64,000 nt of DNA from Smithellaceae bacterium (GTDB taxonomy: Bacteria > Desulfobacterota > Syntrophia > Syntrophales > Smithellaceae). The notes beneath the pieces were generated by a model, which was not told the DNA's origin, did not search any database, and saw only the letters and a program-made list of their open reading frames with translations. The DNA lies in assembly GCA_049514435.1 (NCBI GenBank), contig JBEKVB010000003.1, positions 153,848-217,847 on the forward strand. The letters are read 5' to 3'. The position numbers were made by a program, and so were the translations under genes. Below are positions 1,439 to 24,245 of the stretch, one piece after another. The first letter of the stretch is position 1. Each line of letters begins with the position of its first letter.

Positions 1439-1499
1439 GATTTACGCTACCCTTTTTCGGCATTTAATATATTACCTCTTTTAAAATGTTTAGATCGCT

Positions 1500-1703: not shown

Positions 1704-1752
1704 AACACCTCCTTTGTAGCTCGTCTGACGTGCTACTGATTGTTAAAAAAAT

Positions 1753-2310: not shown

Positions 2311-2427
2311 AAAATCTTCACCTTTAAGTAGCGCTTAACACGTTCTACGTATTCTTGCAAGAACTATTTTTCTGTTTTTTTAGGATACTAAATCAGGAAA
2401 GGTTATTTTATAGATCAGACCATAGAG

Positions 2428-2482
2428 GTAGGGTTCCTAGCAAACCGAAAGATGGCAATTTATATTTTTGTTTATGACACCT
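2428..2482 (+). repeat. dispersed repeat family X, copy 1 (GTAGGGTTCCTAGCAAACCGAAAGATGGCAATTTATATTTTTGTTTATGACACCT)
   Basis: About 75-80% identical by hand alignment to 5466-5519. Lies 60 nt downstream of the stop of the 2542-3174 gene. Confidence 0.65.
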
Positions 2483-2541
2483 TGGTTGAGTGCAACGTTA
2501 ACAAGAAAAGTAACGATTACGTATAAAGGTATTCACGGTTA

Positions 2542-3174: not shown

Positions 3175-3312
3175 ACCCTTTCCCCTCCTTAAGGCTATGA
3201 GTAAATGACGTTGTTATCTCCGAAATAAAGCCACGTTTGTTTTCTACTAACAATTCAGACGGGACTTCATTTTATGGCAGGTGCCGTGCCTAACCAATAG
3301 ATGGCAAACAAT

Positions 3313-4785: not shown

Positions 4786-5199
4786 ACGATTTCATCCTAA
4801 GGAACAAAGATTTAGTTACAATAGATTTATGCCTCTGATTTCATCATCGATCCCTGAGCTCTCTTCACTCTTCCAATAATTTTTGCCTGGAAATTATTCC
4901 ATTTTTATAAACAGCTTAATCAATTCTTCTGATAGAACCACTTCAGACTTTCCGAATATTTTCCTCGGAAAGCACAAAACCCCATTTCCTCTGATAGGTA
5001 GATGGGGTATGTGAATCAATCCGTTCATGACAGCCTCTTTGACCGCGCCGAATGGTTTATGGTTTTACCTGTTCTATAAACTGCAAAATGAACTTTGCTC
5101 TCCGTAATCGTAAGTGTCGCCATTTATAAATCTTTTGTTGTCAATAGTCAACAGAATCTCCCTCTCGCTTCTGTTAAGTTGCTTTCGTAGGAGGCGAAC

Positions 5200-5427
5200 T
5201 TGACGATCGAAGAGGCATTTGGGGAAGTAATCAGGGAACTCAGGAAGGCAAATCAAATCTCTCAAGAGAAACTTGCCGAGGTAAGCAAACTCGATCGGAG
5301 CTTCATTTCACTTTTGGAATGCGGGCGTAAACAACCTTCATTGATCATGATTTTTCAACTTGCAAAAGCCCTCAATCTTTCCGCATCAAAAATCCTGTCG
5401 CTTGTTGAAAAAAAAATCAAAAAATAG
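5200..5427 (+). CDS. XRE-family HTH transcriptional regulator (75 aa, TTG start)
   Basis: FGEVIRELRKANQISQEKLAEVSKLDRSFISLLECGRKQPSLIMIFQLAKAL is a canonical XRE HTH. AGGAGG sits 5 nt upstream of the TTG. Divergent from the T5orf172 gene. Confidence 0.7.
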   Translation: MTIEEAFGEVIRELRKANQISQEKLAEVSKLDRSFISLLECGRKQPSLIMIFQLAKALNLSASKILSLVEKKIKK

Positions 5428-5465
5428 ACGGGAACCAAGAATAATTCGAGACTATACAAAGGGCA

Positions 5466-5519
5466 GTAGGGTTGCCAGCAAACCGAAAATGACGATATAC
5501 TTTTTTGTTTGTTACACCT
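5466..5519 (+). repeat. dispersed repeat family X, copy 2
   Basis: GTAGGGTTGCCAGCAAACCGAAAATGACGATATACTTTTTTGTTTGTTACACCT. Lies 150 nt downstream of the stop of the 5672-8269 gene. A weaker third relative (cctaaccaatagatggcaaac) is at about 3285-3306, just after the stop of the 3313-4785 gene. Confidence 0.6.
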
Positions 5520-5671
5520 ATAAGTCAACAAACATGATAAATAAAAAATTTTGAGGATTTGCGTTTGAAATGTTTGATCTAACATGACCATCAGCGGACC
5601 TGCATGCCGGGTGCTGTGGGGGCCGGGGGGAAAAACCCTCGGCTACCCGATTGACATTGGTTATGCAATCA

Positions 5672-9221: not shown

Positions 9222-10571
9222 TCAAAAACTCAGTCGTACACGAATGGAATACACCGCAACCGGACCACGGTCATTATTGTACCCGGGATTTTGGATGAAT
9301 TGATAGTCCGGACTAATCTGTACATATGAACCAAGCTGGATACGGTAGTAGACTTCCAATATCTGTTCCCAGCCATACTTCAAATGGCCGTCGCCCAACA
9401 TAAAACCGTTGCCACCCGCTTCTAGATAATCTTTGTGCTGGGTCGACAATCCATCGACCAAATAGGCAACCCCTACACGGTCTTCCTTACGGCCCCAATG
9501 AATCCCGCTCACCTGTATTCCTGCACTCAGATGTTGATCCGCTTCAGTATACATGAAATCTTCATTTGACCCATCATTCCAACCTAACCTAGCAAAAAGA
9601 CCTGTTTCACCATCATCCATTAAAGGTTGTTCCAAATTGATTCCAAACCCACACTTGGTGCGTCCTTCTTTATCATCGGCCCTGACATCCGGTATGGCAC
9701 CTGTGAGTTGTCCTAAACTAATTGATTCATTATAATTTCCCATTCTTCCACGATTATAATATGTAAGGAATCTTAGTACCGTCCCCTTCTCATTTGGTTT
9801 TACAGTCAGCTCTAGATTATAGCCGCCAGCCTCAAAGATGTTGTTGTCTAAATCATTGCCATTGGCCACGATCGGCATCTGGTAGTAGCCCAAAGCCAGT
9901 TTCCATTGGGGCATGACCAATGCAATAAGGACACCATTACTGTAGCCCCTGGTGTCTGCTGCAAAATCCCAGGCAGTATTGTTGATAAACCCCCAGTTGA
10001 GGAACTGGGTGCGTGTATTGTTGGCATAGCGGTTTACGTCGAAATCGTCCGTTGCCGCAAGCCTCCCTGCTTTTATCTCGATCCGGCTTACGTATTCTAC
10101 ACCTGGGAGTTGATCCATAGCCCTTTCCACTTTTTCCGTTTTCCCGGATAGTGGATAGACATACCGGGCATAGAAACGGGCGATATATGGTCCATCCCCC
10201 AGATCAGCTGATCCCTCCCGAATTACATCTCCATTAGTATAAGCACCAAGACCCACAGCATTGCTGATCCCATATCCCCTAGCCATTTCGACATCAAGAT
10301 ATAACTGTAGGAATTGGGTAATCTGAGAACCGATATAGAGACCATAAATCTGTGTCGATCCGTGTCCCTCGTTATTATTGGTCGTCAAGCTGTTTGGTCC
10401 TTGGTAGGGACTGTGAAAGTCGGGCATGTTCTGGTAAATTTCATTGTATTGCATTCCCAACACTTTAGGCACCCACTCAGGCATTTTGAAATCATCAGCA
10501 TATGCAAGGCAGGCAAACACATTCAGTATCGCTGCAATCAGGATTATCCGATAAAACTTTGACATTTTCAT
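9222..10571 (-). CDS. outer-membrane beta-barrel porin, OprB (carbohydrate-selective porin)-like
   Basis: Signal peptide MKMSKFYRIILIAAILNVFACLAYA. FHSPYQGPNSL motif typical of the OprB family. Alternating beta-strand pattern. C-terminal ...RVRLSF with terminal Phe. Confidence 0.65.
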   Translation of the reverse strand: MKMSKFYRIILIAAILNVFACLAYADDFKMPEWVPKVLGMQYNEIYQNMPDFHSPYQGPNSLTTNNNEGHGSTQIYGLYIGSQITQFLQLYLDVEMARGYGISNAVGLGAYTNGDVIREGSADLGDGPYIARFYARYVYPLSGKTEKVERAMDQLPGVEYVSRIEIKAGRLAATDDFDVNRYANNTRTQFLNWGFINNTAWDFAADTRGYSNGVLIALVMPQWKLALGYYQMPIVANGNDLDNNIFEAGGYNLELTVKPNEKGTVLRFLTYYNRGRMGNYNESISLGQLTGAIPDVRADDKEGRTKCGFGINLEQPLMDDGETGLFARLGWNDGSNEDFMYTEADQHLSAGIQVSGIHWGRKEDRVGVAYLVDGLSTQHKDYLEAGGNGFMLGDGHLKYGWEQILEVYYRIQLGSYVQISPDYQFIQNPGYNNDRGPVAVYSIRVRLSF

Positions 10572-10684
10572 AATAAAACCTCAGGAATCGAAACTCTTTT
10601 CAGTATTCTCAAACCAGGTCGTATGTAAATTCCTGATTGCTTCCGCGCTCAGCACTTACAAAATGAAATGGTTAATTCAGTGAT

Positions 10685-10798
10685 TTATGAAAAAGTCTTT
10701 ATAAATTTCACAAGAAGTAGCCCTATAAGAAATATCATGTAAAATCTCAAGAATAATAGCGCAATTCTAGTCGTTTTGGTCATCTTGATACGTGCCAT
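10685..10798 (-). CDS. small ORF, 37-aa single-TM peptide (MARIKMTKTTRIALLFLRFYMIFLIGLLLVKFIKTFS), not in the ORF track
   Basis: ATG preceded by GAAGGAGG (6-nt spacing), starting 12 nt after the stop of the MgtE-N/CBS gene. Basic N-terminus plus one hydrophobic helix. Confidence 0.35.
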   Translation of the reverse strand: MARIKMTKTTRIALLFLRFYMIFLIGLLLVKFIKTFS

Positions 10799-10810
10799 AT
10801 TTCCTCCTTC

Positions 10811-12109
10811 TTATATCTTTATACGTGTGGCCATGGTTTTCATGACGTCATTATAGAGAATGACACCCAGGATATTATCCGCACTATCGACCACAGGAAC
10901 CATCCGATAATGATATTTGGCAAACAATTCAGCCAAATCATCGGGATTATCATCTTGTTCCGCCGTGACCACAGGCGCCATCATTATCTCGGCAAGCATT
11001 TTGTTTTGATCAGCAACTATAAGCTCGCGTACATCAACGACTCCCAAGAGTTTGTGACCGTCGTCATCAACAACATAGAGATAGGAAATGTTATGGTATT
11101 CGAGGCCGGAATGCTGAACCCTGTTCAGGGCATCACCGACACGGACATCTTTCTTTATGGCCAGAAACGCTGAGGAGACCAGCCTTCTGGCAGTCGTCTC
11201 TCGCTCCGCTAGAATGGCGCGAACCCGTTCAGCCTGTTCTTTATCCAATAAATTTATAAACTGAGATACCTGATCGTAGGGCAGAACGGAAAAAAGAGCT
11301 GCCAACTGCGGGACTGACATTTCGCTGAAGATCATCCGGGCCCTTTCCTGTCGAATATTAGCGATTATCTGCCGCTGGGCGCGAGGTTCCGCTTCTGCGA
11401 GTGCCTCGGCGGCTTTTTCCGAATCAAGTCCTAAGAGGAGCGCCTGCTGTTCTTCCTCAGGGAGTTCCTCCAGTATATCGGCTAGATCCTCGGAGGGAAG
11501 TTTGGTGAGCTGATTTTTTGTTACCGACAGGGAAACCTTACCCGTTGCAACCACATCTTCGACTGACAAGGGCTGAACAAATTTCCAGGAGATGAGATCT
11601 TCTTTTATCCATTTTAGTTTGCCCAATCCCCAACGTTTCAGGTGACCAGCAAAAGAAATATCGACGTGCACCAGGAAAAGCTTCTCCTTTGACATCAACA
11701 GGTGAATATCGTTGACAACTTCGACGCGCCGATCGTCCATATCCACCACGGTCCTTCCCATCAGATGTTTATCCAGAAGAATCCAGCCAGCCTGGTCAAT
11801 AAAGGGTGGGTAAGTTGCATTATCAGGAGGCCGGACGATAATGGAGTCCTCTTTCAGGTGGCTGACCTTTTCCCACGGGATGAAGGTACTCGGCTTTCCC
11901 CAGCCGTGCTCCATATATATCCCGACAGCTTCCGGATAGGGCTCCGTGAGAGAAAACACCAGATCGGTTAATTTTCCAATCCGGTTTTCAAGTTTCTCTA
12001 CACAGATCGGCCGTTTGATGAGCTCTGACAAATAATAGAATTGGTAGCTGTTCTGCGGTTCGGACTCCTTCATGCCATTCTTTTTCACTATCATTGCGCG
12101 ATCCTCCAT
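10811..12109 (-). CDS. soluble MgtE-like regulatory protein: PRC-barrel-like N-terminus + MgtE N-domain + CBS pair, no MgtE membrane domain
   Basis: LPSEDLADILEELPEEEQQALLLGLDSEKAAEALAEAEP is the MgtE_N signature. C-terminal tandem CBS-like segments. The ATG lies 2 nt after the NRAMP stop (TAAGGATG). Confidence 0.75.
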   Translation of the reverse strand: MEDRAMIVKKNGMKESEPQNSYQFYYLSELIKRPICVEKLENRIGKLTDLVFSLTEPYPEAVGIYMEHGWGKPSTFIPWEKVSHLKEDSIIVRPPDNATYPPFIDQAGWILLDKHLMGRTVVDMDDRRVEVVNDIHLLMSKEKLFLVHVDISFAGHLKRWGLGKLKWIKEDLISWKFVQPLSVEDVVATGKVSLSVTKNQLTKLPSEDLADILEELPEEEQQALLLGLDSEKAAEALAEAEPRAQRQIIANIRQERARMIFSEMSVPQLAALFSVLPYDQVSQFINLLDKEQAERVRAILAERETTARRLVSSAFLAIKKDVRVGDALNRVQHSGLEYHNISYLYVVDDDGHKLLGVVDVRELIVADQNKMLAEIMMAPVVTAEQDDNPDDLAELFAKYHYRMVPVVDSADNILGVILYNDVMKTMATRIKI

Positions 12110-12111
12110 CC

Positions 12112-13419
12112 TTACTTAAATAGTTCAGGGAAAAGGGTACTGATGCCCAACAGTGTCGAAACTAAAACGACAACTATGACAATCGACCAATTCATAATAT
12201 TTTCCCATCTTGTATTGACATGCTTACCCATGAGGGGTTCGTCATTCAGCAACAAAAGCAAAAACACCAGTGCCGGCGGAAGCAGCGTAACGGCCACGAC
12301 CTGTACGAACATGGTGATTGTTATTAAGGGTGCTCCCGGGATCAGGACCACAGCGCCTGAAGTCAGCAGCATGAAAAGATAGACGAAATAAAACCAGGGG
12401 GCATCTTTGACTTTCTTGTTCAGGGAATGAGCCCAGCCGAAGATCTCCCCCACAGCCCAGGATGTGGACAGCGAAATACAGAGCGCTCCCAGGAACCCTG
12501 CATCGAAAAGACCAATGGCAAAAAGTCTGCGGGCCATTTCCCCTTTCCCATGCGACAGGAAAGGAACAATGGCCTCCGCCGTTTGCCGGGCGTCTTCTAT
12601 TTCGATAGGGGGTTTATGATAATAGAAAATTGCAGCTGTCGTAATTATAATAAATACAGCTACAACACACGTGGATATAGATCCAAGGAAGGTCTCCAGT
12701 TTGCCGAATTTGATGTCATGAATATCGAGTTTTTTATCAACTACAGCGCTTTGCTGGAAAAAGAGCATCCAGGGTGCGATGGTTGTTCCGATATTGGCCA
12801 TAATAATAAAAATCAGATCAGATGTCATGCCGCCCATTTGAAAAGTGTAAAACCCCTTGAACGCTTCGTTCCACGAGGGGGAAGACGGCATATCCATTGC
12901 CCAGATGGCAGCTGGTATATAGACAAGATTAAACAAACAGAAGAATAATGTTATTTTCTCGAAGGTCCAGTATTTACCGGTGATAACGATGGCAAAGAGA
13001 ATTGCCGTTACCACAAGGAAAGTGATCCAGGCGGGTACGCCAAAAAGGCTCATTGCCGCGGTCATCCCTATATATTCTGTAATCAGTGTTAACCAATTTG
13101 TAATCGCAAGGTCTGTGAGCGAAAACCAGCCCCAGAAAGGACCGAAAGCGTCAAAGATGGCTTCCGCATGTCCCCGCTTGGTAACAGCGCCCAAACGAAC
13201 TGTCATTTCCTGGACGTAATAAGCCATAAATATTAATAATATAAACATCCAGAGCAGGGAGAACCCGAATTTGGATCCGGTTACGGCATAGGTGGAAATG
13301 CCGCCGGCATCATTATCAGCCACCATCACGATTATTCCGGGTCCCAGCACAGCCAGAAAAACAATTAGCTGCCGGCGGAAGCGATTCAATAAATGAAGAC
13401 TCTTAGAGATCAAATACAT
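12112..13419 (-). CDS. NRAMP/SLC11-family transporter of the NRAMP-related Mg2+ transporter (NRMT) type
   Basis: 11-12 TM NRAMP architecture. The TM1 motif reads DNDAGG (canonical DPGN). The TM6 motif reads GTTIAPWMLFF (canonical GAT-V-MPHNLYLH), so the metal-binding Met and Asn are replaced. Preceded by an M-box riboswitch. Confidence 0.8.
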   Translation of the reverse strand: MYLISKSLHLLNRFRRQLIVFLAVLGPGIIVMVADNDAGGISTYAVTGSKFGFSLLWMFILLIFMAYYVQEMTVRLGAVTKRGHAEAIFDAFGPFWGWFSLTDLAITNWLTLITEYIGMTAAMSLFGVPAWITFLVVTAILFAIVITGKYWTFEKITLFFCLFNLVYIPAAIWAMDMPSSPSWNEAFKGFYTFQMGGMTSDLIFIIMANIGTTIAPWMLFFQQSAVVDKKLDIHDIKFGKLETFLGSISTCVVAVFIIITTAAIFYYHKPPIEIEDARQTAEAIVPFLSHGKGEMARRLFAIGLFDAGFLGALCISLSTSWAVGEIFGWAHSLNKKVKDAPWFYFVYLFMLLTSGAVVLIPGAPLITITMFVQVVAVTLLPPALVFLLLLLNDEPLMGKHVNTRWENIMNWSIVIVVVLVSTLLGISTLFPELFK

Positions 13420-13705
13420 TAGAAACCTCCTGTTACGTAGCCAATCCTAAGGAAAAGACTTCCTTTCGTCTAGTGCTGCTGGACAAATTTACAGGGAAAA
13501 TTTTGAAGACTTAGATAATCCCTGCTCCTAGTTGTCTCCCGCTCAACAGGTCGGAAGATCAGCTAAAGCAAGGGAAAAGATGAAGGGGCTCAGAGCTGAT
13601 TACCTCGTAGAGAACGGGCAAATTATAAAATATCCGTTATGAGTACTATTACTGCCATCGCCATCCATGTATGAAACCACCACCTTTCTGATTCATAATT
13701 TGGGC

Positions 13706-13734
13706 ATAAAAAAAGCCATGGGGATACCCATGGC
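13706..13734 (-). terminator. intrinsic terminator (expression platform of the M-box): GCCATGGG-TATC-CCCATGGC + U7
   Basis: Perfect 8-bp stem read directly, followed by TTTTTTT on the minus strand. Lies immediately 3' of the riboswitch aptamer. Confidence 0.65.
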
Positions 13735-13760
13735 CGATATGTACATAATGCCTCGAATCC

Positions 13761-13917
13761 CCTCTCGTTGATTTTCGGCAGTGCACAACGTAGATCCTTT
13801 GTGACCAGCTACTTCGGGTAAAGCCTTAAGCCGGCAATACCTGGTCTACCCATTGGCGTCTTTCGACATTTCCGGGCAGCAGCCTGTGTTTGTGCAAACG
13901 CCTCATGCTAACGAGGA
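13761..13917 (-). promoter_or_regulatory. M-box (ykoK leader) Mg2+-sensing riboswitch
   Basis: The minus-strand RNA reads CCUCGUUAGCAUGAGGC...GCUGCUGCCCGGAAAUGUCGAAAGACGCCAAUGGGUAGACC...CUUAAGGC...GUAGCUGG...CACUGCCGAAAAUCAACGAGAGG. These blocks match the conserved M-box cores as I recall them from the B. subtilis mgtE leader (GUUAGGUGAGGC, GCUGCUGCCC-AAAAUGUCCAAAGACGCUAAUGGGU, UAAGG, GCAGCUGG, GUGCUAAAGCUCUACGA). Confidence 0.8.
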
Positions 13918-13926
13918 ATGACAGCG

Positions 13927-13955
13927 TCTTTACAGAAAAGTATTCACCTTGTCAA
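13927..13955 (-). promoter_or_regulatory. sigma70-type promoter for the M-box/NRMT operon (TTGACA-17 nt-TAAAGA)
   Basis: TTGACA at 13955-13950 and TAAAGA at 13932-13927 on the minus strand. Just upstream of the riboswitch P1. Confidence 0.4.
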
Positions 13956-14060
13956 GAAAAAAAATAAAAAAACTATTAATAAATTGTTCGTCTCACTTTT
14001 CATTACAAAACTACGAAAATTAAATTCTTTAATTTGATTTGATAGGGCTCGAGAATTAGT

Positions 14061-14120
14061 GGATGAAATGTAGCATCCCTATCATGGTTGAAATATTATT
14101 GACTTCAGGAAGAAGTTCCT
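14061..14120 (+). repeat. family F1, divergent copy A (..gtagcat..ttgacttcaggaagaagt)
   Basis: Shares the GTAGCAT and TTCAGGAAGA blocks with the other copies. Ends 12-17 nt from the stop of the 14132-17128 gene. Confidence 0.45.
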
Positions 14121-14131
14121 GCTAATTGCAA

Positions 14132-17128
14132 CTACTCCTGCGTGGCAATTCGAGCGACAGCTTCGATAGCAATTGCAGCCACTGCCGAACCATAATCCAA
14201 GTCAATGTTTTCCATCGTGTCGTGTGTATCATGATAGCCAGTCCGGTTAATATCATAATTTTCCATGAATAATACAACAGGCACGCCTATGTCGGAAAAA
14301 ATCTGGCCATCGGTGTTAAAGAGCGAACTGGCCGGATCATCTATAGTCCGAACCTCGCCGTCCAGACATGGATGAAGCGCAATGTTCGGCAGCGTATGAC
14401 CATCTTTACAGCGTTGGCCTTGTCCCTTACCGCGACGCTCCGGAGTTTCATTCCATTCGCTCGTTTTGGCATTCCAAATCATGTTCGCTATGTGTGCCTG
14501 GTAAGCGATGCCAAGCGACTCGCGGCTTTCGCCAGGTGAGATCTGAAACACATTCTGATCTTTGTCCCGGTTATGCGCTATCATGTCCAACACGTACAAA
14601 CCAACGACCTCGACTTGAGACAAGTCCATCGATTGATTCTCTTCCAGCCGCAACCTGAGCGTCTTTTCGACCAACGCCTGAGAAAAATTGCGCGCTCCCA
14701 TGCAATCCGAAGGAAACTCTTCGCCAGTGAGGTGCAACAGCCAAATGTCACGTTCGAGCCGTTCTTCCTTTGCTAGTTGGAGAAAGATCGGCGCAGCCAG
14801 CAAAAGCGTGGTTGTCGCCGAATGGTTGTCGTCTGCTCCGGCAGCGGCTAACCGAGCGCCAGAGCCCCCGCGTGAAGGATCATAGATGTCTTCCATATAA
14901 GCCGTATCATAGTGATCGGCCATGACCACCGCCTGAGTGCGGTCCTTGCCCGGAATCACAACAAGGATATTTCGTTCATAGGCGTGTCCTTCTTGATTGT
15001 TCTTCCACCCGCCAAAAAGTGAAAAGTCGAAATCCGTTTTCCATTGAAACGGTAACTCTTCGCACACGGCTTTACCATCCATGCCTGCCTCGGCTATGGA
15101 CTTGCGATGACGAGTGATAAGATAATCGCCCAAGTGTTCCAGATCGCGATGATGATGGCTTAGCTTGCTTTGTGTGGTCTGATCCTGCACGCAATCGGCA
15201 TTGTCCTTGTTAACAAAGTGGCCATGCGACAGAGTCAGTATATCGTGCCAGAATGCTTCCTCAAAAGTGCGCGTTGCAGTCTTGTTGTAGGTCAAGGGCT
15301 GAGGCAAATCTTTCGCTGCATTCGTCGACTCCAGAATTTTTTCCAATTCCCTCTGAATTCGGTGGCCTTCCTTGGGATCACGGGTCAGTTTCGGCAACGA
15401 GGCCAGCCATTCATCAAGTGTTTCATGCTTGGCGATTCTGAGCAGATGGTGAGCAAAACTGCGCCGTAAGGGCTGCTTGTTCCCGAGTTGCCAGCTATCA
15501 AGAAGCGAAAGAATATTGAGCGGAGTCTGATGAATATAGTGATCGTGAAGCGGGTCAAAGTTCTGCAAGGCCGACAGATATAAGTCACGTCTGAGCAAGC
15601 GTGGCCAAAGCTCGATGGGTTGTGTAAGATCAAGTAAATCCGTTCGATAGGCAGTCAGGTATCCGAGAGGTGCGTTTGGAAGTAACTCCGCCTGTTTCGA
15701 TTTCGGCGACCAGTAAGCTGCCAGTGGCCGATGCCAATAAACCTCGTGCAAACCGACTCGCATCGCCGGAAAGAGAAATCTATATCCAAAAAGTCCACCT
15801 TCAACTAAACTTGTTTCTGCTTTCCGAAGTTCTGTCGGTGTAGCATTCGGGCCATTTAGAACCAGATCGAACTCCTTGGTCCATATTTGACTGTTCCTAG
15901 CCAGGGGTTTGTCGTAGAGGTTGATGGAATCAAGCGCTGTACTGAAAAGCACTTTGGCAACTTTGTCCAAACGAGGATTCAACGCGAGCGCATCATCATA
16001 GCGATGAACTCGGTTCCAACGGTTCGTGCGCCGATAGGTATCCAGCACAAGCTCTTGCTGTACCTGCGATACCTTGAGGCTAGGATGTGGCTCACTCAGC
16101 CAACCTGATTGCGGAATGCGAATTCCCGTCGGCCCGTCATGGCGGACCACCCATCTCTGCGAAGCAATTTGGATAGCCATCGGTAATTCTTGTTGCAGGC
16201 GCAGATACGTTGGCATTCCCCAGGGGACAAGACTCCCCGGAAACGGCAGAAGGTTCAGCTTGCCAAGTAGGTACCGTTCTCGTACCTGATAAGGAAGGCG
16301 GCTGAATGGTCTGAAAGTTAACAAGTATCGGACATCTTCAACCGGGGTGCGATCGTTTATAAGATAAGGTTGAGTCCACGCGGGAAGAGGGTCTTTATCC
16401 CAATAAGGAAACTTTAAATTATGCTCTGAAGGCAAAATACGAAATCCAAGACGGAATAATTGCGCCGCATCTTCGGCGCTTTCTCCATAAACAGAGGACA
16501 ATAATTGCAGAATAAATGCCAGCGATGTTTGCTCGGACAACTCTTGACCAGGAGCTAAATAAAAACTTTTCCAGAAACCACGTTCGGGTCCTTGTTCGCT
16601 GCTGCCAAAAAATGTCCAACGCACTCGGCCCATGTCATCCTGCGTTCGGGAAAGAGCCAAAGGTAAAAGAACGACATAGCGCTCATGAGCAAGATGGCCA
16701 GAGCGAGCGGCCAATTCGGGCGGCCAATAAGGATTTCCCAAGAGATTCATTCCCTTGTGACCGGATATGTGATAGGCTGGCTGGTCTTCACCTAACTTGA
16801 CAAGAAGCTCAATGATCTGTCGGGCAATATTCTCCAACCCTGGTTTAATTTCGTACTCTTCCTCGATTTCAGAGACATGCCAACCGTATGGGTCATCTTC
16901 CGAGAATAACAACAGATCGATGGCACCGTATGGTGTGCGACCCAGTCTCGGTGGCGGCATGAATTCCGAGTATGCGGGTAGGGGATATTGCCCCTTACCC
17001 AAAAACCATGGATAACCATCTAGCAGTTGCAGCCATCCAAGCCGATTTTTGTTGATATTCAAAGATGAAGACTTTGTATCAGATCCCTTCGGATAGATAG
17101 TCATTGCTTCCGCCTCTTGGCTGGACAA
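14132..17128 (-). CDS. large fusion protein: ~700-aa unassigned N-terminal region + C-terminal M28-family metallopeptidase domain (likely real start is ATG at 17104)
   Basis: C-terminal M28 motifs: ADHYDTAY, GADDNHSATTTLL, LTGEEFPSDCMGARNF, GYHDTHDT. AAGAGG lies 9 nt upstream of the ATG at 17104. G+C is higher than the core genome. Confidence 0.7.
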   Translation of the reverse strand: MSSQEAEAMTIYPKGSDTKSSSLNINKNRLGWLQLLDGYPWFLGKGQYPLPAYSEFMPPPRLGRTPYGAIDLLLFSEDDPYGWHVSEIEEEYEIKPGLENIARQIIELLVKLGEDQPAYHISGHKGMNLLGNPYWPPELAARSGHLAHERYVVLLPLALSRTQDDMGRVRWTFFGSSEQGPERGFWKSFYLAPGQELSEQTSLAFILQLLSSVYGESAEDAAQLFRLGFRILPSEHNLKFPYWDKDPLPAWTQPYLINDRTPVEDVRYLLTFRPFSRLPYQVRERYLLGKLNLLPFPGSLVPWGMPTYLRLQQELPMAIQIASQRWVVRHDGPTGIRIPQSGWLSEPHPSLKVSQVQQELVLDTYRRTNRWNRVHRYDDALALNPRLDKVAKVLFSTALDSINLYDKPLARNSQIWTKEFDLVLNGPNATPTELRKAETSLVEGGLFGYRFLFPAMRVGLHEVYWHRPLAAYWSPKSKQAELLPNAPLGYLTAYRTDLLDLTQPIELWPRLLRRDLYLSALQNFDPLHDHYIHQTPLNILSLLDSWQLGNKQPLRRSFAHHLLRIAKHETLDEWLASLPKLTRDPKEGHRIQRELEKILESTNAAKDLPQPLTYNKTATRTFEEAFWHDILTLSHGHFVNKDNADCVQDQTTQSKLSHHHRDLEHLGDYLITRHRKSIAEAGMDGKAVCEELPFQWKTDFDFSLFGGWKNNQEGHAYERNILVVIPGKDRTQAVVMADHYDTAYMEDIYDPSRGGSGARLAAAGADDNHSATTTLLLAAPIFLQLAKEERLERDIWLLHLTGEEFPSDCMGARNFSQALVEKTLRLRLEENQSMDLSQVEVVGLYVLDMIAHNRDKDQNVFQISPGESRESLGIAYQAHIANMIWNAKTSEWNETPERRGKGQGQRCKDGHTLPNIALHPCLDGEVRTIDDPASSLFNTDGQIFSDIGVPVVLFMENYDINRTGYHDTHDTMENIDLDYGSAVAAIAIEAVARIATQE

Positions 17129-17151
17129 ATTTTTATTAAGAAGGATTGTTT

Positions 17152-17214
17152 AACGATTACAGGTTGTAATCTAGCATATAATTACAATTTTGGAAATTGA
17201 GGATTACAGGAAGT
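17152..17214 (+). repeat. family F1, copy B (AACGATTACAGGTTGTAATCTAGCATATAATTACAATTTTGGAAATTGAGGATTACAGGAAGT)
   Basis: Ungapped hand alignment to copy D gives 46/63 identities. Contains the inverted repeat TTGTAAT/ATTACAA flanked by two direct ATTACAGG. Fills most of the 102-bp gap between two genes. Confidence 0.7.
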
Positions 17215-17230
17215 AAGATGCAGCCGTTTT

Positions 17231-18088
17231 TCAGACGCTCTGCTTGAACATCTCATCTGCTATTATACCATCACATATCTTCATTACTGGGCCTGTCATG
17301 GTGGCAAAGAAGCCTTTACTGAAATTAATCTGAATATCTCCGCCCTGCATGTGAACAGTAATATCTGTATCACAAAGCCCAAGTCTGCGAGCAACCGCGG
17401 CAGCAGCAGTGCTGCTGCTTCCTGAAGCGAGAGTATATCCGGCTCCACGTTCCCAAATCTCGATCTGTATATTGTTACGATCCACAACCCTCATGAACTG
17501 TACATTTGTCCGATTAGGAAAACGAGGATCGACCTCCAGCAGAGGACCTAAGCGGCGTGCGTCTTCAGGCGTTGGGGAGTCCGAGAGAACAACGCAGTGC
17601 GGGTTGCCGATAGTGGCCGCGCAGAACGTCAAGATTTGATCGTCAACCTCTATGGTCTCTTTCAAGACTTCACGATGGTCGCCGACAACAGGGATCTTCG
17701 AACTATCAAAACTAACTTCACCCATTTCGACCTTCACACTTCTACCATCATCACTGACCACACATGACACAGGACCTCCAATGGTTTCTATAGTGAAGCA
17801 CCCATTATCAACGAGATGCTCATCCCAAAGGAAACGTGCGAAGATTCGAAGTCCGTTCCCGCTTTTTTCCGCCTCACTACCGTCGGGATTGAGAATCCTA
17901 AGTCCGAATTCACATGACTCACTGTCCAAAGGGCCAATAAGAATCCCGTCCGATCCAACACCATAGTTTCTATGGCAGATCAGGCGGATGGCATCAGGAT
18001 CAAGTTCACCCTTTACATCGGCCGGACGAATCACAATGTAATCGTTACCGATGGCATGATATTTTGTATATTTCATTTTTGATTCCAA
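17231..18088 (-). CDS. diaminopimelate-epimerase (DapF)-fold protein with both catalytic Cys replaced by Ser (start probably ATG at 18076)
   Basis: HAIGNDYIVI, NPDGSEAEKSGNGLRIF and ERGAGYTLASGSSSTAA align to E. coli DapF HGLGNDFMVV, NADGSEVAQCGNGARCF and ERGAGETQACGSGACAA. Confidence 0.75.
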   Translation of the reverse strand: MESKMKYTKYHAIGNDYIVIRPADVKGELDPDAIRLICHRNYGVGSDGILIGPLDSESCEFGLRILNPDGSEAEKSGNGLRIFARFLWDEHLVDNGCFTIETIGGPVSCVVSDDGRSVKVEMGEVSFDSSKIPVVGDHREVLKETIEVDDQILTFCAATIGNPHCVVLSDSPTPEDARRLGPLLEVDPRFPNRTNVQFMRVVDRNNIQIEIWERGAGYTLASGSSSTAAAAVARRLGLCDTDITVHMQGGDIQINFSKGFFATMTGPVMKICDGIIADEMFKQSV

Positions 18089-18416: not shown

Positions 18417-18815
18417 CTATTTTGAGATGGAAGATGGAAACAACTCCGGCTTTGCGTATTGAGTAATATCTATATTGAAATGTATATAGATGTCTTTTTC
18501 GCCAGAAACCGGAATCCAGTATGTATCAAGCACCTGCTTGAATGGTTCAAAATAGGCCACTGAGCGCTTGGTGATCCCTTCTGCCAATGCCGCATTTGCC
18601 AGGCATGTTTTATGGGATTCATTCAAGCCTGTCAATTCATAGCATTTCATTCCGGGTTGGATGCCCAGGTCGCGTGCCAGCTTGTTGACTGCGATGATGG
18701 AACGATCCTTCTTAAGCAGCATAACCACGAAAGGGAAAGCATCCCACATCATATGAAACGCTTTTATTAGATCCAGATTGGCATCGGGGTCTGATTTATT
18801 TGATGTGTTCTGCAT
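18417..18815 (-). CDS. small PAS-like domain protein (132 aa)
   Basis: ORF track. FPFVVMLLKKDRSIIAVNKLARDLGIQPG...DTYWIPVSGEKDIYIHF resembles a stand-alone PAS fold. Family assignment is tentative. Confidence 0.45.
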   Translation of the reverse strand: MQNTSNKSDPDANLDLIKAFHMMWDAFPFVVMLLKKDRSIIAVNKLARDLGIQPGMKCYELTGLNESHKTCLANAALAEGITKRSVAYFEPFKQVLDTYWIPVSGEKDIYIHFNIDITQYAKPELFPSSISK

Positions 18816-19071
18816 CGATTTTCCCCTTGATAGTTCACGTTCATGGTCTAGCGTATAAGAAACGCGGCCTTGAATGTCAAGGAAATCTTGACCTCAAAAT
18901 GTAATGTACCGTGCCGATGTATATCGTCGAGAGTGAATTGTGTTTATTACGGATTGAAGTCCTGCATACTCGACAAGGATGAGGATCTGTTTCTTTCAGG
19001 AAGTATGATTTACAATCCATCTTTACACCTGCTGTCAAGATAACTTCGTCCTACAGTACATTGGGCGGCGA

Positions 19072-19932
19072 CTAAGCGTCGATCCCTTGTTCTTGCAAGG
19101 CAGCTCTCAACTCATTTACGAGTCGATGCTCCACGATCCAGTCGACCAGTGCATCGAGGTGCATAAATTTCACCAGTCTCCCTTGCTTTTCACGCTGTGC
19201 CTGAAACCAGGCATCCATGACCGGCTCGACGTATGGATTCGCATGTCCATTGGTTACAAGTACACCTTCGATATAGTCTGGAACTACAGGCAGTTGAAAC
19301 GTAGTTAGTGGAACCAAGAAGATCTCCTCCAACTCGTCTTTACTCTCTCGCCATTTGTTTTTGTCTATGTCTCCACACTTGACTTGATAGTGACGCAGGA
19401 CGACAACCCCATCGATATGAAGTAGTGCAGCAATGTCCTTGCCGTACTCAATAGGCCCATGACGAACCTGCGCGTAAAGGGGTAGCCCAGCTTGCAGCAC
19501 ACGCAGCAATACCGTCCTAAGTACCGATTCCTTTGTTATGCCCTCGAACGCACGGTGCATCCATGTCCGAACGGGCCCGAGCATGGCAGTAAGAGCGCTC
19601 TTTCCGATCTCCGGACGCATAGCCTCGGTGACGTCCGGACCTATGATGGGGATCTTAGCAAGCATATCAAGGGCAAGAGCAAGTCGATTTCGGGTTAGCT
19701 CGCTGGCCGGATCGCTTTCGAAACCTCTGAAGGCACCTGCTGCTTCAGAGATGAACGTCAGCGCTAGACGATCATATTCGGTCTCTACGGACATACGGAT
19801 CTCGACTTGATATTCGCGACGCGCATCTTCGGGGCTGAATGTTTGTGGATCCGAGACGAGTTTTGACAAAACGTTCACGAGCACACGAAACCGTGCCACT
19901 TCGCCGCTGTGCCACCCCGACTCCGTACCCAC
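19072..19932 (-). CDS. hypothetical protein with a C-terminal Mrr/PD-(D/E)xK-like nuclease motif. In frame with, and probably the continuation of, the 20050-20841 ORF.
   Basis: YGKDIAALLHIDGVVVLRHYQVKCGDI resembles the G-x-D...D...Q/E-x-K core of Mrr-type restriction endonuclease domains. GTG start with no convincing RBS. Confidence 0.5.
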   Translation of the reverse strand: MGTESGWHSGEVARFRVLVNVLSKLVSDPQTFSPEDARREYQVEIRMSVETEYDRLALTFISEAAGAFRGFESDPASELTRNRLALALDMLAKIPIIGPDVTEAMRPEIGKSALTAMLGPVRTWMHRAFEGITKESVLRTVLLRVLQAGLPLYAQVRHGPIEYGKDIAALLHIDGVVVLRHYQVKCGDIDKNKWRESKDELEEIFLVPLTTFQLPVVPDYIEGVLVTNGHANPYVEPVMDAWFQAQREKQGRLVKFMHLDALVDWIVEHRLVNELRAALQEQGIDA

Positions 19933-20049
19933 TAGGGATTCTGCTGCCTTAGCAAGAAGCTCTTTTGCCTTCGCTGGAGTTCGGATCGATTCGGCCAGTC
20001 GAGCTCTGGCACGAAAGTATTTTGCCCACAGTTGCTGATTGATACCCGA

Positions 20050-20841
20050 CTAATGTCCGCCCTTCTCTTCTAAGGCAACTGGAAGGGTATCAGCAGCGAA
20101 AGCGTCTGCTGCTTTGTCGAACCAAGCTACTGCCTTGGCTTTCTCCACATGGGCCAGCGTGACTGCCAGCCAGCCCTTCAGGCCAGGCGTAGTGAAATCG
20201 ATAGCATGCTCCAGCACAATTTTGTGCGCCCCTTGCCAGTCGCCATCGAAAGTAAAAAGGTGGAAAGCGGAAGGAATGTTTAAGATCAATTCCTGCCCAC
20301 GCTGCTCGACGTCCATCGGAACTTCATAAGCAGGGAATTGCACATCCCATTTTCCGTCAAGGTCAGTGACAATGACGATTCCCCGCACGAGATAATTGCT
20401 CGCATGTTCAGAGTTTCCAAAGTGCTTCAATAAGCGCTGGGCGAGCTCGGAGTTTATCTCGCGAATCCGCGTTTGAATTGCCTCGCAGTCGACCTTGAAT
20501 AGCCACAAAGAACGAGCTAATAATTGTTTTAGTTTATAGAGCGCAGCAAGAGATACTGGGGAGTCAGGAGATTGTTCTGAAATAACCTGCTCGAAATCGA
20601 GCAACCCGGCATGCTGTGCCTTGAGCATATGATCAGGGTTTCCCCAAGCAGCATCTATGGCACATGACATTGCTACGCCCGCGCTAAAGTGTTGGCCGTC
20701 TCTACGCCAGAGTTCCGCAGCTTGGTATAACTTCTCGTAGGCGACTTCATTACCCGGAGGCGCCAGTGTCCGACTGACTTCTAGGAATAGATCACGTGCA
20801 GCACTCATAAAACTCCAGATGTTTGCTTCGCTGCCCAACAA
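20050..20841 (-). CDS. hypothetical all-helical protein (263 aa), terminated by a TAG that is in frame with the downstream ORF
   Basis: ORF track. 39 stop-free, start-free codons (SGINQQLWAKYFRARARLAESIRTPAKAKELLAKAAESL) link its TAG (20050-20052) to the GTG at 19932. Confidence 0.55.
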   Translation of the reverse strand: MLGSEANIWSFMSAARDLFLEVSRTLAPPGNEVAYEKLYQAAELWRRDGQHFSAGVAMSCAIDAAWGNPDHMLKAQHAGLLDFEQVISEQSPDSPVSLAALYKLKQLLARSLWLFKVDCEAIQTRIREINSELAQRLLKHFGNSEHASNYLVRGIVIVTDLDGKWDVQFPAYEVPMDVEQRGQELILNIPSAFHLFTFDGDWQGAHKIVLEHAIDFTTPGLKGWLAVTLAHVEKAKAVAWFDKAADAFAADTLPVALEEKGGH

Positions 20842-20979: not shown

Positions 20980-21047
20980 TATCAGTACTGGCTATTCTTC
21001 TACCATATGCAACTTCCAGCATGGGAATATATTTATTTTGGGAATTG

Positions 21048-22087
21048 TTCACCTGACAAAGCATGGTTCCGAATTCCCTTTTAGTAAGTTTTTCAACATT
21101 AATCTCTCGCCTTCCATTCCCTTGACCGCTTCTTCCGCTCTTTCACCATCAGTCACTTTCCGGTTATCCCACCGGAAAGAAAACTCATTGCAATATCTTC
21201 CTAAATGCTTCTTAGAAATATGATGGAAAGTGCTATTGACACCACGCTTTACTAATGCGAAAAACGATTCCGCTGTGTTAGTAGAAATATCACCATTAAC
21301 ATATTGACCTAATCCGTGATTGACTACTCCGTGTCCACCTTTAAAATCTTTGCCTATTCCTATATAACTTCTAAATTCATCAGTTATTATTTTCGATTCG
21401 CTGTCCACTGCTTCTCTAATCGCTGACTTCAATGTCTTGGCTGTCACGTTCTTAACCGGCTTGGTAATTATTCTTCCGCCTCGTTCCACCATTGCCATTA
21501 CTGGAGCCTTCTTAGTTCCTCTGCCTCTTTTTCCACTCCCTTTTCTTGGCTTTCCGCCTATGTAAGTTTCGTCAACTTCAACAGTGCCTTTTAAAGCGGC
21601 AGCCAAAGCACCTTCTTTCATGGCGAGTCTTATTCTGTGAGCAAGATGCCACGCGGATTTATAAGAACCAAGACCTAAGTTTCTTTGAAGCTGAAGGGCA
21701 GAAATTCCCTTTTTGTGAGAACTCATGGAATGAAAAGCCTGAACCCATTGCCTTAAAGTAATATGAGAATCTTCCATTACCGTGCCGATCATAACAGTAA
21801 ATTGTTTACGGCAAGCATTACATTGAATCAAGCCGTCTCTGACCTTTTCAGATTTGCTATTAAGTCTTGTCACATTATCACTTCCGCAATGAGCGCATTT
21901 TACACCTTCCGGCCAGCGGATATGCTCAAGGATTGCCCTTGCTTCATCTTCAGTTAATCGGCAAATGTCTATTGCCGACATCTCCGCAAATCTCTCAAAT
22001 TTAGGTGGTATATATTTCATGGTTTTAACTCCTTTCTCTCTTTTGTTACCCATAATATATACCCGTTTATCTGCTTTGTCAAGTGGA
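21048..22087 (-). mobile_element. IS1595-family (ISXO2-like) insertion sequence, ~1.04 kb
   Basis: Terminal inverted repeats TTCACCTGACAAAGCA (21048-21063) and TGCTTTGTCAAGTGGA (22072-22087), 14/16 complementary. One transposase gene. No clear target-site duplication seen. Confidence 0.65.
21049..22020 (-). CDS. IS1595-family DDE transposase with N-terminal zinc ribbon
   Basis: CAHCGSDNV...CNACRKQFTV zinc ribbon. HKKGISALQLQRNLGLGSYKSAWHLAHRIR HTH. VEVDETYIGGK DDE region. AAGGAG RBS before the MKYIPPKF start. Confidence 0.8.
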   Translation of the reverse strand: MKYIPPKFERFAEMSAIDICRLTEDEARAILEHIRWPEGVKCAHCGSDNVTRLNSKSEKVRDGLIQCNACRKQFTVMIGTVMEDSHITLRQWVQAFHSMSSHKKGISALQLQRNLGLGSYKSAWHLAHRIRLAMKEGALAAALKGTVEVDETYIGGKPRKGSGKRGRGTKKAPVMAMVERGGRIITKPVKNVTAKTLKSAIREAVDSESKIITDEFRSYIGIGKDFKGGHGVVNHGLGQYVNGDISTNTAESFFALVKRGVNSTFHHISKKHLGRYCNEFSFRWDNRKVTDGERAEEAVKGMEGERLMLKNLLKGNSEPCFVR

Positions 22088-22292
22088 TAGTTAAAATATA
22101 TTACCTAATAATATCGACCTGTTACTACAAGAGATAGGAGTAGAACATAATAATGCTTATCACTGAAATAGATAACCAGATTAAACCCTCCATAATAAAT
22201 CGAGAGACAGTCTGGGGAGGGAAAAACACTAGTAAAGTAAGAAAAAAAATGCTAATTACAGCGCCAATAAAACCTATTCCACTTAAAAACAA

Positions 22293-23015
22293 ATGATACT
22301 TTTTGAGCGTTGGAAGAAAACCGCAATTCACAATAAGGCTTTGGTATTGACCGGATTCCTTGTAGCCTTCGGAACTCTGTTCTATGCCGGTGCGGCTGTT
22401 TTCCAATACTGTTTGATGAAAGACACCGCAAAAGCTGCTGCTGAACAAACAAAAATTTTGATAGGAGAAATGCAGAACCAAACTAAAGCTATGCAAGACG
22501 CTGCTAATGCTACTATGAATACTGTTAAAGTAGCTGAACGGAATATCAAATCCACACAAGAGCAATTTAGATTGGATCAAAGGGCTTGGATTAGTATAAC
22601 AAAGGCAAACTTCAGGGAACCGCTTGATGCGAAGAAAAAAGCCGTCATAGATTTTGTAGTCAAAAACAGTGGCAAAACCCCAGCTCTGCATCTTCGGGGG
22701 AGTTATGAAACATGGTATCAACATTTGGGAACAGCTTCTCTGAAAGTCGGGAAAACTATTAGCGGTGAAATCGCTTACGGTCCCGGAGATGAAAAAGTAA
22801 CCTTTATCGGATGGGACGAACCTCTTCTTCAAGCTCAAATTGACCTTATGCAATCGGGGCAGGAAATCCTTTTTATTGAAATCAAATTTATATATTTTGA
22901 CATATATAACAGCAAAATACCGCATCACACTTGCACATGTTTTTTCTATGACTCCAAAGCTGCTATCAATGGGGCTTTGTCGCTCTGTGAAACTGGGTGT
23001 AGTTATATGGATTAG
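22293..23015 (+). CDS. hypothetical membrane-anchored protein (240 aa): one N-terminal TM helix + coiled segment + beta-rich domain
   Basis: Protein-like sequence (AVIDFVVKNSGKTPALHL...). Strong purine-first / A,T-third codon periodicity in this frame. Fully overlapped by an antisense ORF (see findings). Confidence 0.5.
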   Translation: MILFERWKKTAIHNKALVLTGFLVAFGTLFYAGAAVFQYCLMKDTAKAAAEQTKILIGEMQNQTKAMQDAANATMNTVKVAERNIKSTQEQFRLDQRAWISITKANFREPLDAKKKAVIDFVVKNSGKTPALHLRGSYETWYQHLGTASLKVGKTISGEIAYGPGDEKVTFIGWDEPLLQAQIDLMQSGQEILFIEIKFIYFDIYNSKIPHHTCTCFFYDSKAAINGALSLCETGCSYMD

Positions 23016-23090
23016 CAAAATAATTATCCCAAATAACCATTTATTTTTCATTGTTCAGCTCCTGCTTTGTGAAGTGAACAATTCCCTTTA

Positions 23091-23124
23091 TTTTTCTAAA
23101 AAATTTTCAGCCTGTCAATGCGCA
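23091..23124 (+). repeat. family c, copy 3: TTTTCTAAAAAATTTTCAGCCTGTCAATGCGCA
   Basis: See 8747-8784. The reverse complement contains TTGACA. Confidence 0.6.
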
Positions 23125-23360
23125 TGAAGGAGGGATACCTCACAAACGGGGCGACCCTATCTCTTAAAAAAGGGGGTATCCGGGGGGTAAAGGGAAGCAT
23201 TCTTTTTGGGTGTGCGATCTGCTACGGAAGGTGTAACTAAATTGTAACCGTCTTAACCGAAAATAAACAAACATAAACAAACATAATCCAACTTGCTCAT
23301 GGTAACATGTCAATATATAAAGGCTTAATTATGATGGGAAATCGCCTTTATGTTAGTTAC

Positions 23361-23427
23361 GACTTCAAATCCAGTGTGGGGCGCTAGAACCGTCCCGGGT
23401 GGGTTCGATTCCCATGCGCTTCCGCCA
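23361..23427 (+). pseudogene. selC: 3' half of tRNA-Sec (selC): anticodon loop CU-UCA-AA, long variable arm, T-arm, 8-nt acceptor strand, G73, CCA. The 5' half is missing (att-type remnant).
   Basis: GACTTCAAATCCAGTGTGGGGCGCTAGAACCGTCCCGGGTGGGTTCGATTCCCATGCGCTTCCGCCA closely parallels the 3' half of E. coli selC as I recall it (GGACTTCAAATCCAGTTGGGGCCGCCAGCGGTCCCGGGCAGGTTCGACTCCTGTGATCTTCCGCCA). Upstream sequence cannot pair with GCGCTTCC or TCCAG. Confidence 0.7.
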
Positions 23428-23488
23428 TGCATAAATTTAATGCAGATGTGGTGCAATAACTGCCGGAATTAATTAAATAGATACAGAC

Positions 23489-23517
23489 TTGACAGAAATA
23501 TTAATTGAACCTATAAT
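23489..23517 (+). promoter_or_regulatory. consensus sigma70 promoter TTGACA-17 nt-TATAAT upstream of the dsbC-like gene
   Basis: TTGACA at 23489-23494 and TATAAT at 23512-23517, read directly. Confidence 0.6.
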
Positions 23518-23546
23518 TAACCATATTCTTAAGGAGGTATAAATTA

Positions 23547-24245
23547 ATGAAAAAATTAGTTTTAATTGTTTTATGTCTTCTTCTCATTATTCCTGTTTGT
23601 GCCGGCGCAAAAAATCTCAGCTCCGAAGATAAGTTTAAGAAGAGTTTCCCAAAAAACAATTTTGAAAGCATAAAACCTACTTCCATTAAAGGAGTATACG
23701 AAATTTACGACGGCAATCAGATTTACTACTTTATGCCGGAAGCAGAGGTTATTATTTACGGCAATATAATTTCCAAAAACGGGGTAAATATCACCCGGGA
23801 AAGCAATTTAAAAAAGATTGCAGCAAAAATGGCCAATCTGCCTTTGGATAGCGCTTTGAAAATCGGCAATGGAAAAACTCCTGTGATAGAATTTATGGAT
23901 CCCGACTGTTCTTACTGTCGTCAAGCTTACAATTTTTTCTCTCAACGCCAGGATGTAACCATTTATGTTTTCTTCTCTCCCTCATTTCAAAACTCGGAAA
24001 AAAAGATCAGGCATATCTTATGCGCCCCGGATAAATTAAAGATGTATGAAGAAGTCCTTACGGGGAAATTTGATAATAATGCCCCGCTTAATATTTGCAC
24101 AGATAAAAAAGTTGATGAGACTGTCAAAACACATATACGGCTTTCTTCTCAAATAGGAATCAGATCAATACCCTTATTTTTTATCAAAGGACAGGTGATT
24201 GTCGGTTTCGAAAAAGCTATTATTGAAAATATTTTGAAAGACTAG
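23547..24245 (+). CDS. periplasmic thiol:disulfide interchange protein, DsbC/DsbG-like
   Basis: Signal peptide. Thioredoxin-fold CxxC (DPDCSYCRQ). AAGGAGG RBS. Confidence 0.7.
   Translation: MKKLVLIVLCLLLIIPVCAGAKNLSSEDKFKKSFPKNNFESIKPTSIKGVYEIYDGNQIYYFMPEAEVIIYGNIISKNGVNITRESNLKKIAAKMANLPLDSALKIGNGKTPVIEFMDPDCSYCRQAYNFFSQRQDVTIYVFFSPSFQNSEKKIRHILCAPDKLKMYEEVLTGKFDNNAPLNICTDKKVDETVKTHIRLSSQIGIRSIPLFFIKGQVIVGFEKAIIENILKD

Follow-up and report, generated by a model that had tools for sequence, protein, structure and literature searches.

Why does the 3′ half of a selenocysteine tRNA gene stand alone at positions 23361-23427 of this stretch of a Smithellaceae genome? The window, meaning the whole stretch of DNA that was analysed, comprises 64,000 nt of contig JBEKVB010000003.1 (GCA_049514435.1, Smithellaceae bacterium; 153,848-217,847, forward strand); negative coordinates denote positions to the left of window position 1. 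A preliminary description had read the segment as tRNA-Sec (selC) from the anticodon loop onward, displaced by an island that integrated into the gene. The segment, GACTTCAAATCCAGTGTGGGGCGCTAGAACCGTCCCGGGTGGGTTCGATTCCCATGCGCTTCCGCCA, does contain every part named there: the anticodon loop CUUCAAA with the UCA anticodon, the long variable arm, the T arm, the 8-nt 3′ acceptor strand, G73 and CCA. The fragment and the features to its right are as follows.

23361..23427, + strand: probable attR core, displaced 3′ fragment of tRNA-Sec (selC), identical at 67/67 positions to the 3′ part of the intact selC (-1094..-1028)
23489-23517, + strand: sigma-70 consensus promoter in the chromosomal right flank, TTGACA-17-TATAAT, 12/12 matches
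23547-24245, + strand: DsbC-like gene in the chromosomal right flank, also found beside intact selC in two other loci (L019 and L098)

The consensus promoter had been pointed out in the preliminary description and is real.

No tRNA was called at 23361-23427 by ARAGORN, whose only tRNAs in the window are a tRNA-Ala and a tRNA-Leu located elsewhere, and at Rfam gathering thresholds the window yielded two tRNAs and an M-box riboswitch and nothing at the fragment. With permissive thresholds the Rfam tRNA-Sec model aligned 23338-23423 (86 nt) at 35.4 bits against a gathering score of 47, with mismatches (non-canonical pairs) at 5′ acceptor, D and anticodon-stem positions. A complete cloverleaf at covariance-model score is absent from 23338-23427, which is not a functional tRNA-Sec gene. 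Upstream of the fragment, GAAATCGC can pair with the 3′ acceptor strand at 6/8 positions; because about 2% of the 8-mers in the window equal that, the resemblance to an acceptor strand is chance, and GGGAAATCGCC was ruled out as a relic 5′ acceptor strand on the same ground. The 5′ partner strands are therefore missing, as had been claimed. One detail of that claim needs correction: the 5′ acceptor strand required for pairing had been given as GGAAGCGC, and the true strand is GGAAGTGC, which includes one G-U pair. A selC gene split by the IS1595 element of this region was likewise ruled out, since the window holds no match to GGAAGCGC...CTGGACTTCA and no 5′ fragment; moreover, the end of the insertion sequence lies 274 nt from the fragment.

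The intact gene was located by looking up contigs that code exactly the window's proteins, among them the 248-kb JGI contig Ga0439239_0000042, which is that of the window itself, and near-identical ones from other samples. One such locus (L004) shares 11,438 nt with the left end of the window, without a single mismatch, and runs 9.2 kb further left. Here, ARAGORN calls an intact 98-nt tRNA-SeC at window position -1125..-1028 (L004 12467-12564), on the same strand as the fragment, and it makes the same call in L005 and L006. The preliminary description had placed an intact selC beyond position 1 of the window's own contig, and this is where the gene stands. To its left lie moeA, mfd, two surA-like genes and uvrA. 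Gene and fragment are identical from 2 nt ahead of the anticodon loop up to the last A of CCA, and not a base further. The anticipated second copy of the segment is thus the same 67 nt as delimited, 100% identical, in direct orientation and 24,455 bp away; an identity of 67/67 with an intact tRNA-Sec on the same contig is far beyond chance. Further copies were sought in the window at ≤3 mismatches and none was found, nor did the interval between the two copies contain internal att remnants, a sign of tandem islands, at ≤3 mismatches or by word-7 blastn.

In tDNA islands, integration splits a tRNA gene and island DNA restores it, so that the island is marked at one end by the regenerated gene and at the other by the displaced fragment (Islander; Hudson, Lau and Williams 2015, PMC4383910). 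Both marks are present here: an intact, regenerated tRNA gene at one junction and, at the other, a fragment of the same gene in direct orientation. The limits of the island are window positions -1027 to 23427, delimiting 24.5 kb to the base. Among the findings that the preliminary description had named as contrary to its reading were a complete tRNA-Sec at the fragment and a replicon with neither a second copy nor an intact selC upstream; none of the contrary findings that it had named was obtained, as no complete gene exists at the fragment and both the intact gene and the second copy do.

The same data bear on a simpler history, in which mutation and a small deletion removed the 5′ half of a second, once complete selC, without any island. 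The permissive Rfam alignment could be read in its favour, as it takes the 25 nt upstream of the fragment for a degenerate 5′ half with 6/8 acceptor pairs, 86 nt in total. However, about 2% of 8-mers pair equally well with the acceptor strand, the 3′ part is 100% identical and its identity falls to background at one precise base, an integrase stands at the other copy, and relatives carry their single intact selC at exactly the fragment's position. Such a decayed pseudogene is vanishingly improbable, and we return to integration into selC.

The left end of the island carries a putative mobility module.

1..97, - strand: 5′ end of a predicted tyrosine integrase gene, the rest of which runs left to -1021 (PF00589, 73 bits; PHROG phrog_1 'integrase')
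102..308, - strand: Cro/C1-type HTH regulator (HTH_26), 68 aa
351..596, - strand: HTH_17 protein, 81 aa, candidate excisionase or recombination directionality factor (PF12728, 28.7 bits)

An integrase had been expected beyond position 1, and the PF00589 gene indeed occupies the space between the intact selC and window position 97. Pointing towards selC, it stops 6 nt short of the CCA of the intact gene (attL core). Its Pfam domains are PF00589, PF02899 and a weak PF24624 only, the same as in a full-length homologue, and WRRAE, HDFRR, GHKT and DRY are candidates for the R...HxxR...H...Y motifs. Two homologues from other genomes, 85% identical (L096 and L097), likewise adjoin an intact tRNA-SeC, each with the same orientation relative to it. 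L097 has mfd-surA-surA-uvrA after selC and, as in the window, an HTH_17 gene ahead of the integrase; the chromosomal neighbours in L096 are different (HAD hydrolase, gatCAB), indicating that the integrase is associated with selC and not with the neighbourhood. Islander also looks for a tyrosine integrase inside the island that is not of the Xer or integron type, and PF00589, phrog_1 and the 85%-identical homologues sited at selC suggest that the predicted protein is such an enzyme. The HTH_17 protein weakly matches phrog_66, 'excisionase and transcriptional regulator', and may act as the excisionase.

Sites without the island were sought in two ways. Assembled metagenome contigs were scanned by exact pattern for the predicted attB, in which the 5′ half of selC is followed by the core and then by the flank on the DsbC side, and one genome per species was scanned with the MetG protein. 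The attB scan matched contig Ga0182027_10000571 (L098), which aligns with the window strain at 98.0% identity over -1966..-1028 and at 99.2% over 23361..23955, both flanks being joined via a single core; the two flank alignments overlap by exactly the 67-nt core. The tRNA-Sec of this contig has the same sequence as the intact gene of the window strain and scores 72.8 bits with Rfam tRNA-Sec (RF01852). Flanks that are 98-99% identical and joined at the core show that L098 represents essentially the same species without the whole 24,455 bp, and that the boundary of the missing DNA is the repeat. Among the MetG matches, L019 (76% MetG identity) carries Tmk-HolB-PSP1-MetG-DsbC-selC-MoeA-Mfd-SurA-SurA-UvrA, which is the right flank of the window joined to its left flank, with one intact tRNA-Sec (98% identical, 76.2 bits with Rfam). 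An unoccupied attB with contiguous flanks in a related genome, the remaining feature by which Islander recognizes such elements, is therefore seen twice, once in a near-identical strain and once in a related species, and the empty selC site in relatives that the preliminary description had called for exists. Gene order in L019 and L098 marks the DsbC-like gene as the ancestral neighbour of selC. Look-ups via identical DsbC, dapF and cytochrome c proteins returned island-bearing contexts only, and the island was present in 24/24 long contigs for each of three look-ups with island or flank proteins.

Taken together, the exact repeat, the intact tRNA, the position of the integrase, the empty sites and the association of this integrase lineage with selC lead us to conclude, with a probability of roughly 93%, that 23361-23427 is attR, the 3′ segment of selC displaced by tyrosine-integrase-mediated integration of an island into selC. 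Further points in favour are the tetranucleotide composition of both island parts, which departs from that of the flanks, the rare motifs that the island ends share beside the cores, and the selC fragment and different integrase of L007 at the same place. According to the model, the island would have brought in, on its attP, a selC segment of its own reaching from the anticodon loop through CCA, and crossover would have occurred in the 67-nt identity block, presumably at the anticodon loop, as is inferred from the att class. An intact selC would thereby have been regenerated at the left junction (attL, -1125..-1028), and the old 3′ piece would have been pushed 24,455 bp to the right, beside the DsbC-like gene that once followed selC. 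The left end would represent the mobility module of integrase, Cro-like regulator and HTH_17 excisionase candidate, followed by accessory ORFs, cargo and IS1595.

Attachment sites extending from the anticodon loop to CCA have been described as one class, and sites at the T loop as another, the junction class (PMC4383910; bioRxiv 10.1101/2020.11.02.365908). With a block running from 2 nt ahead of CUUCAAA to CCA, the window island is an Islander-type tDNA island of the anticodon-loop ('A') sublocation class, with selC as its target; the length of the att block (67 nt) follows from the long variable arm of tRNA-Sec. Like other Islander islands it has an intact tRNA at one end, a direct 3′ fragment at the other and an integrase inside, beside the tRNA. 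It differs from them in its host, an uncultured syntrophic Smithellaceae from peat, in its target tRNA-Sec, in an integrase with an early amber codon and in cargo genes such as dapF and an Nramp operon under M-box control. The mechanism is thus known and of textbook kind, and the current understanding of integration is unchanged; what is new is the amber codon 5 of the integrase, the housekeeping-like cargo (dapF, M-box/Nramp, OprB, M28) and the IS1595 element. For annotation, the fragment should be entered as attR and not as a tRNA pseudogene, and all genes that the two repeats enclose, dapF and the M-box/Nramp operon among them, belong to the accessory genome.

The interior of the island, apart from the mobility module, contains the following features.

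833..8269, - strand: accessory module, with hypothetical ORFs of 201, 67, 185 and 210 aa
3313-4785, - strand: T5orf172-TPR protein, 490 aa, with N-terminal T5orf172/MUG113 and C-terminal TPR repeats (PADLOC candidate defence family PDC-S57, 3e-23)
5200-5427, + strand: HTH_3 regulator, 'control protein'-like
5672-8269, - strand: 865-aa protein without family matches
9222..18076, - strand: cargo block (Pfam, Rfam), absent from the empty site L098
9222-10571, - strand: OprB porin
10811-12109, - strand: MgtE_N/CBS/PRC(-barrel) protein
12112-13419, - strand: Nramp
13753-13922, - strand: M-box (magnesium) riboswitch (Rfam, 132 bits)
14132-17104, - strand: M28 peptidase, 990 aa
17231-18076, - strand: dapF
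18417..20841, - strand: three ORFs without family matches (132, 286 and ~262 aa)
21040..23086, - strand: IS1595-family element, transposase at 21049-22053 (PF12762, 6e-40; PF12760)
23087..23360, + strand: right island end, presumed P arm of attP, 274 nt

The preliminary description had taken everything to the left of the fragment for accessory or mobile DNA. The whole block is indeed strain-variable, as that statement implies, but it includes dapF and the Nramp and M28 peptidase genes, to which the label applies less well. Searches with PHROGs on the ten left-end proteins returned integrase, excisionase-like and regulator matches only, and neither these nor Pfam on the remaining ORFs revealed phage structural, packaging or lysis genes; on this gene content the element would not qualify as a prophage. 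Relaxase, coupling protein and type IV secretion genes are likewise absent among the Pfam-matched island ORFs, which would not make it an integrative conjugative element. As a side observation, the T5orf172-TPR gene adjoins the HTH_3 'control protein'-like gene and the 865-aa orphan. The M-box lies upstream of the Nramp and MgtE_N/CBS/PRC-barrel genes, all of them inside the strain-variable island.

Did these 24.5 kb arrive as one unit? Under a composite history, a selC element of ~9 kb (integrase, regulators and accessory ORFs plus the 274-nt right arm) would have integrated and the 14-kb cargo, from OprB to IS1595, would have been inserted later, either mediated by IS1595 or by recombination; the fragment would still be attR. 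Compositional differences are in keeping with such a history: GC content is 42.6% in the left module and 45.9% in the cargo (core range 40-45%), and tetranucleotide correlation to the flanking core is 0.885 and 0.816, respectively, compared with 0.95-0.98 for core chunks of equal size. The island beside the 85%-identical integrase of L096 has entirely different content, dapF occurs at 96-98% nucleotide identity in two other contexts with homology that stops at 63-nt modules, and IS1595 has an extra copy of its inverted repeat at the right end of the cargo (repeats at 21040-21063 and 22072-22092, and a third, better copy at 23063-23086). On the other hand, the one near-identical empty site that was found, L098, lacks the entire 24.5 kb at once, neither an intermediate form nor an internal att remnant was found, and neither a target-site duplication nor a pair of repeats could be established around the cargo. 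We hold the composite history to be less likely than not, and speak below of a single island integrated at selC. The presence of dapF and other chromosomal-looking genes nevertheless means that its interior may have been remodelled after integration.

A 28-nt match between 8758-8785 and 23098-23125 had been considered as a repeat pair bounding the cargo and was ruled out, as it reflects a promoter-like TTGACA motif of the minus strand that is present in three copies. The motif, CTG-y-AATGCGCA after an A/T run, is found at 8452-8470, 8768-8787 and 23108-23127; read on the minus strand, these copies resemble TTGACA-type promoters and stand ahead of the 865-aa ORF and of the passenger segment of the IS. 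The third inverted-repeat copy of IS1595 encloses this 1-kb passenger, whose ORFs (308 aa, minus strand, or 240 aa, plus strand) are without family match.

The dapF gene has a distribution of its own. Its homologue ladder is smooth and vertical-looking (97, 96, 87, 84 ... % identity), and close copies were found in other surroundings: at 98% nucleotide identity in L091/L092, with MBL-fold/4HBT genes on one side and a PilZ gene on the other, and at 96% in L099, in front of a lysA-like gene. The homology covers window positions 17204-18128 for L091/L092 (L091 7019-7943) and 17127-18201 for L099 (65-1140). A 63-nt intergenic module occurs at 17152-17214, 18127-18189 and 20917-20979 of the window, ahead of the genes for M28, dapF and the 262-aa protein, and at 16911-16976 and 15040-15097 of L091; dapF homology ends at or within these modules. 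In gene sense the module reads TTCTTCCTGTAATCCTCAATTT...TTTTATGCTAGATTACAACCTGTAATC, with an extended -10-like TGCTAGATT, and it includes a hairpin, GATTAC-aacct-GTAATC, of which one copy shows paired changes (GGTTTC...GAAATC). The module may be a shared promoter or operator. Integron attC sites were considered for these repeats and are not supported, since no R''/R' box pair is present and the homology does not end where cassettes would. For the MBL protein of L091, long contigs gave no match above 95%, and hence the organisms are probably not conspecific and dapF was probably exchanged recently. A second, native dapF was sought via the MBL-4HBT-dapF locus of L091, and this returned short or non-conspecific contigs only.

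These observations allow a more far-reaching proposal, which we regard as a long shot: the island would have been fixed and domesticated, its integrase knocked out by the amber codon while it may hold the cell's only dapF, and, separately, dapF and its neighbours would be exchanged among Smithellaceae as units bounded by the 63-nt promoter-like module. Module-bounded exchange, if true, would explain why dapF is 96-98% identical in three gene contexts, and it would amount to an undescribed, cassette-like route of gene shuffling.

Is the island still mobile? The ATG of the integrase lies at 97-95 and is followed at codon 5 by an amber TAG (85-83, minus strand) that is present in 3 independent assemblies. 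The homologous integrases start with MGCIYRRGKTYWIKYYRHGK and read MGCIYRRGKTYW, with TAC (Tyr) at codon 5. Because of the stop, gene callers start the integrase at a TTG 30 codons downstream (7-5). According to Pfam, the resulting 342-aa product loses a conserved N-terminal segment and keeps the SAM-like (core-binding) and catalytic domains; the conserved segment is that between the amber codon and the next possible start codon. With an amber codon in the integrase of this population, the element probably no longer excises efficiently and would be effectively fixed. Together with the presence of the island in all long contigs, the amber codon suggests that mobility is by now low or lost. The predicted attP at the circular junction, TTAGTTAC + core + ATAAAATC, gave 0 matches in an exact-pattern scan of assembled metagenome contigs, which rarely capture circles. 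We counted this result, the codon-5 stop, the 24/24 contigs per look-up and the chromosomal-looking dapF and cargo as points against the main reading.

The difference between strains may owe nothing to excision by the integrase. L098 would then have lost the island when the 67-nt repeats recombined as homologous sequences, or would never have acquired it, the element having been immobile since inactivation of its integrase, as the amber codon in all three assemblies, the empty attP scan and the island in every long contig examined would lead one to expect. Yet the 342-aa TTG product would keep its core-binding and catalytic domains, and both 67-nt copies are still identical. We consider the chances of this reading to be even; it concerns present activity and not the origin of the fragment, which we continue to attribute to integration.

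The DNA next to the two cores contains sequences that may serve as arm-type sites. GGTGTGC precedes TTGTAAC in both arms in the same orientation, at 23209 on the right (GGTGTGC...GTGTAACTAAATTGTAACC, 23209-23250) and at -972 on the left; of the 8 occurrences of TTGTAAC in 73 kb, three are in the arms beside the cores (23242, -960 and -949). The right arm additionally has three tandem 10-nt units, ATAAACAAAC/ATAAACAAAC/ATAATCCAAC, at 23264-23293. The shared motifs and the tandem units, which were noticed post hoc, are candidate binding sites at which the integrase may engage the arms. A 17/18 inverted match between 23331-23348 and 294-311, the latter covering the first codons of the HTH_26 gene (ATGATGGG-AATCGCCTT), was rejected as a signal: with E ~0.06 and no extension it is probably chance, and may be a relic.

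Islands and phages at selC are known from Enterobacteria, including LEE and other E. coli selC-site islands (PMC6174562, PMC7545054). As in that group, selC is a hotspot for several elements in Smithellaceae, where at least two integrases use it within one family. Enterobacterial selC elements use P4-type integrases; in contrast, the window integrase has a SAM_1-type core-binding domain and lacks the P4-type Arm-DNA-bind_3 (DUF4102) by Pfam, and the two cargoes are without sequence relationship. The best MetG match in the one-genome-per-species scan was the Smithellaceae (Syntrophales) MAG 'SPRUCE 388' (91% MetG identity). In this closest reference genome (L007), a 29-nt piece of the selC 3′ end, from T stem to CCA, occupies 13045-13073, at the same spot as the fragment of the window, upstream of the DsbC promoter. 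A different tyrosine integrase (PF00589, 426 aa) at 13106-14386 ends 32 nt from this fragment. This second element belongs to the T-loop/3′-end class (Islander 'J') and, unlike the window island, has its integrase at the end with the displaced fragment and not at the intact tRNA. The earlier designation of selC as an integration hotspot is thereby borne out: two integrase types act at two selC sub-sites in this family. The contig stops before the rest of that element.

Two further contigs of related MAGs end in selC-like sequence beside DsbC (L010, 7626-7702; L021, 13106-13160). Assemblers break off in att cores that are present more than once, and selC islands may thus exist in these genomes as well; the contig ends themselves are uninformative on selC occupancy. 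The window thus contributes a strain-variable island of 24.5 kb, delimited to the base, from uncultured syntrophic Smithellaceae that are abundant in peat metagenomes. In another locus of the set, L013, an MFS gene stands between DsbC and an intact selC.
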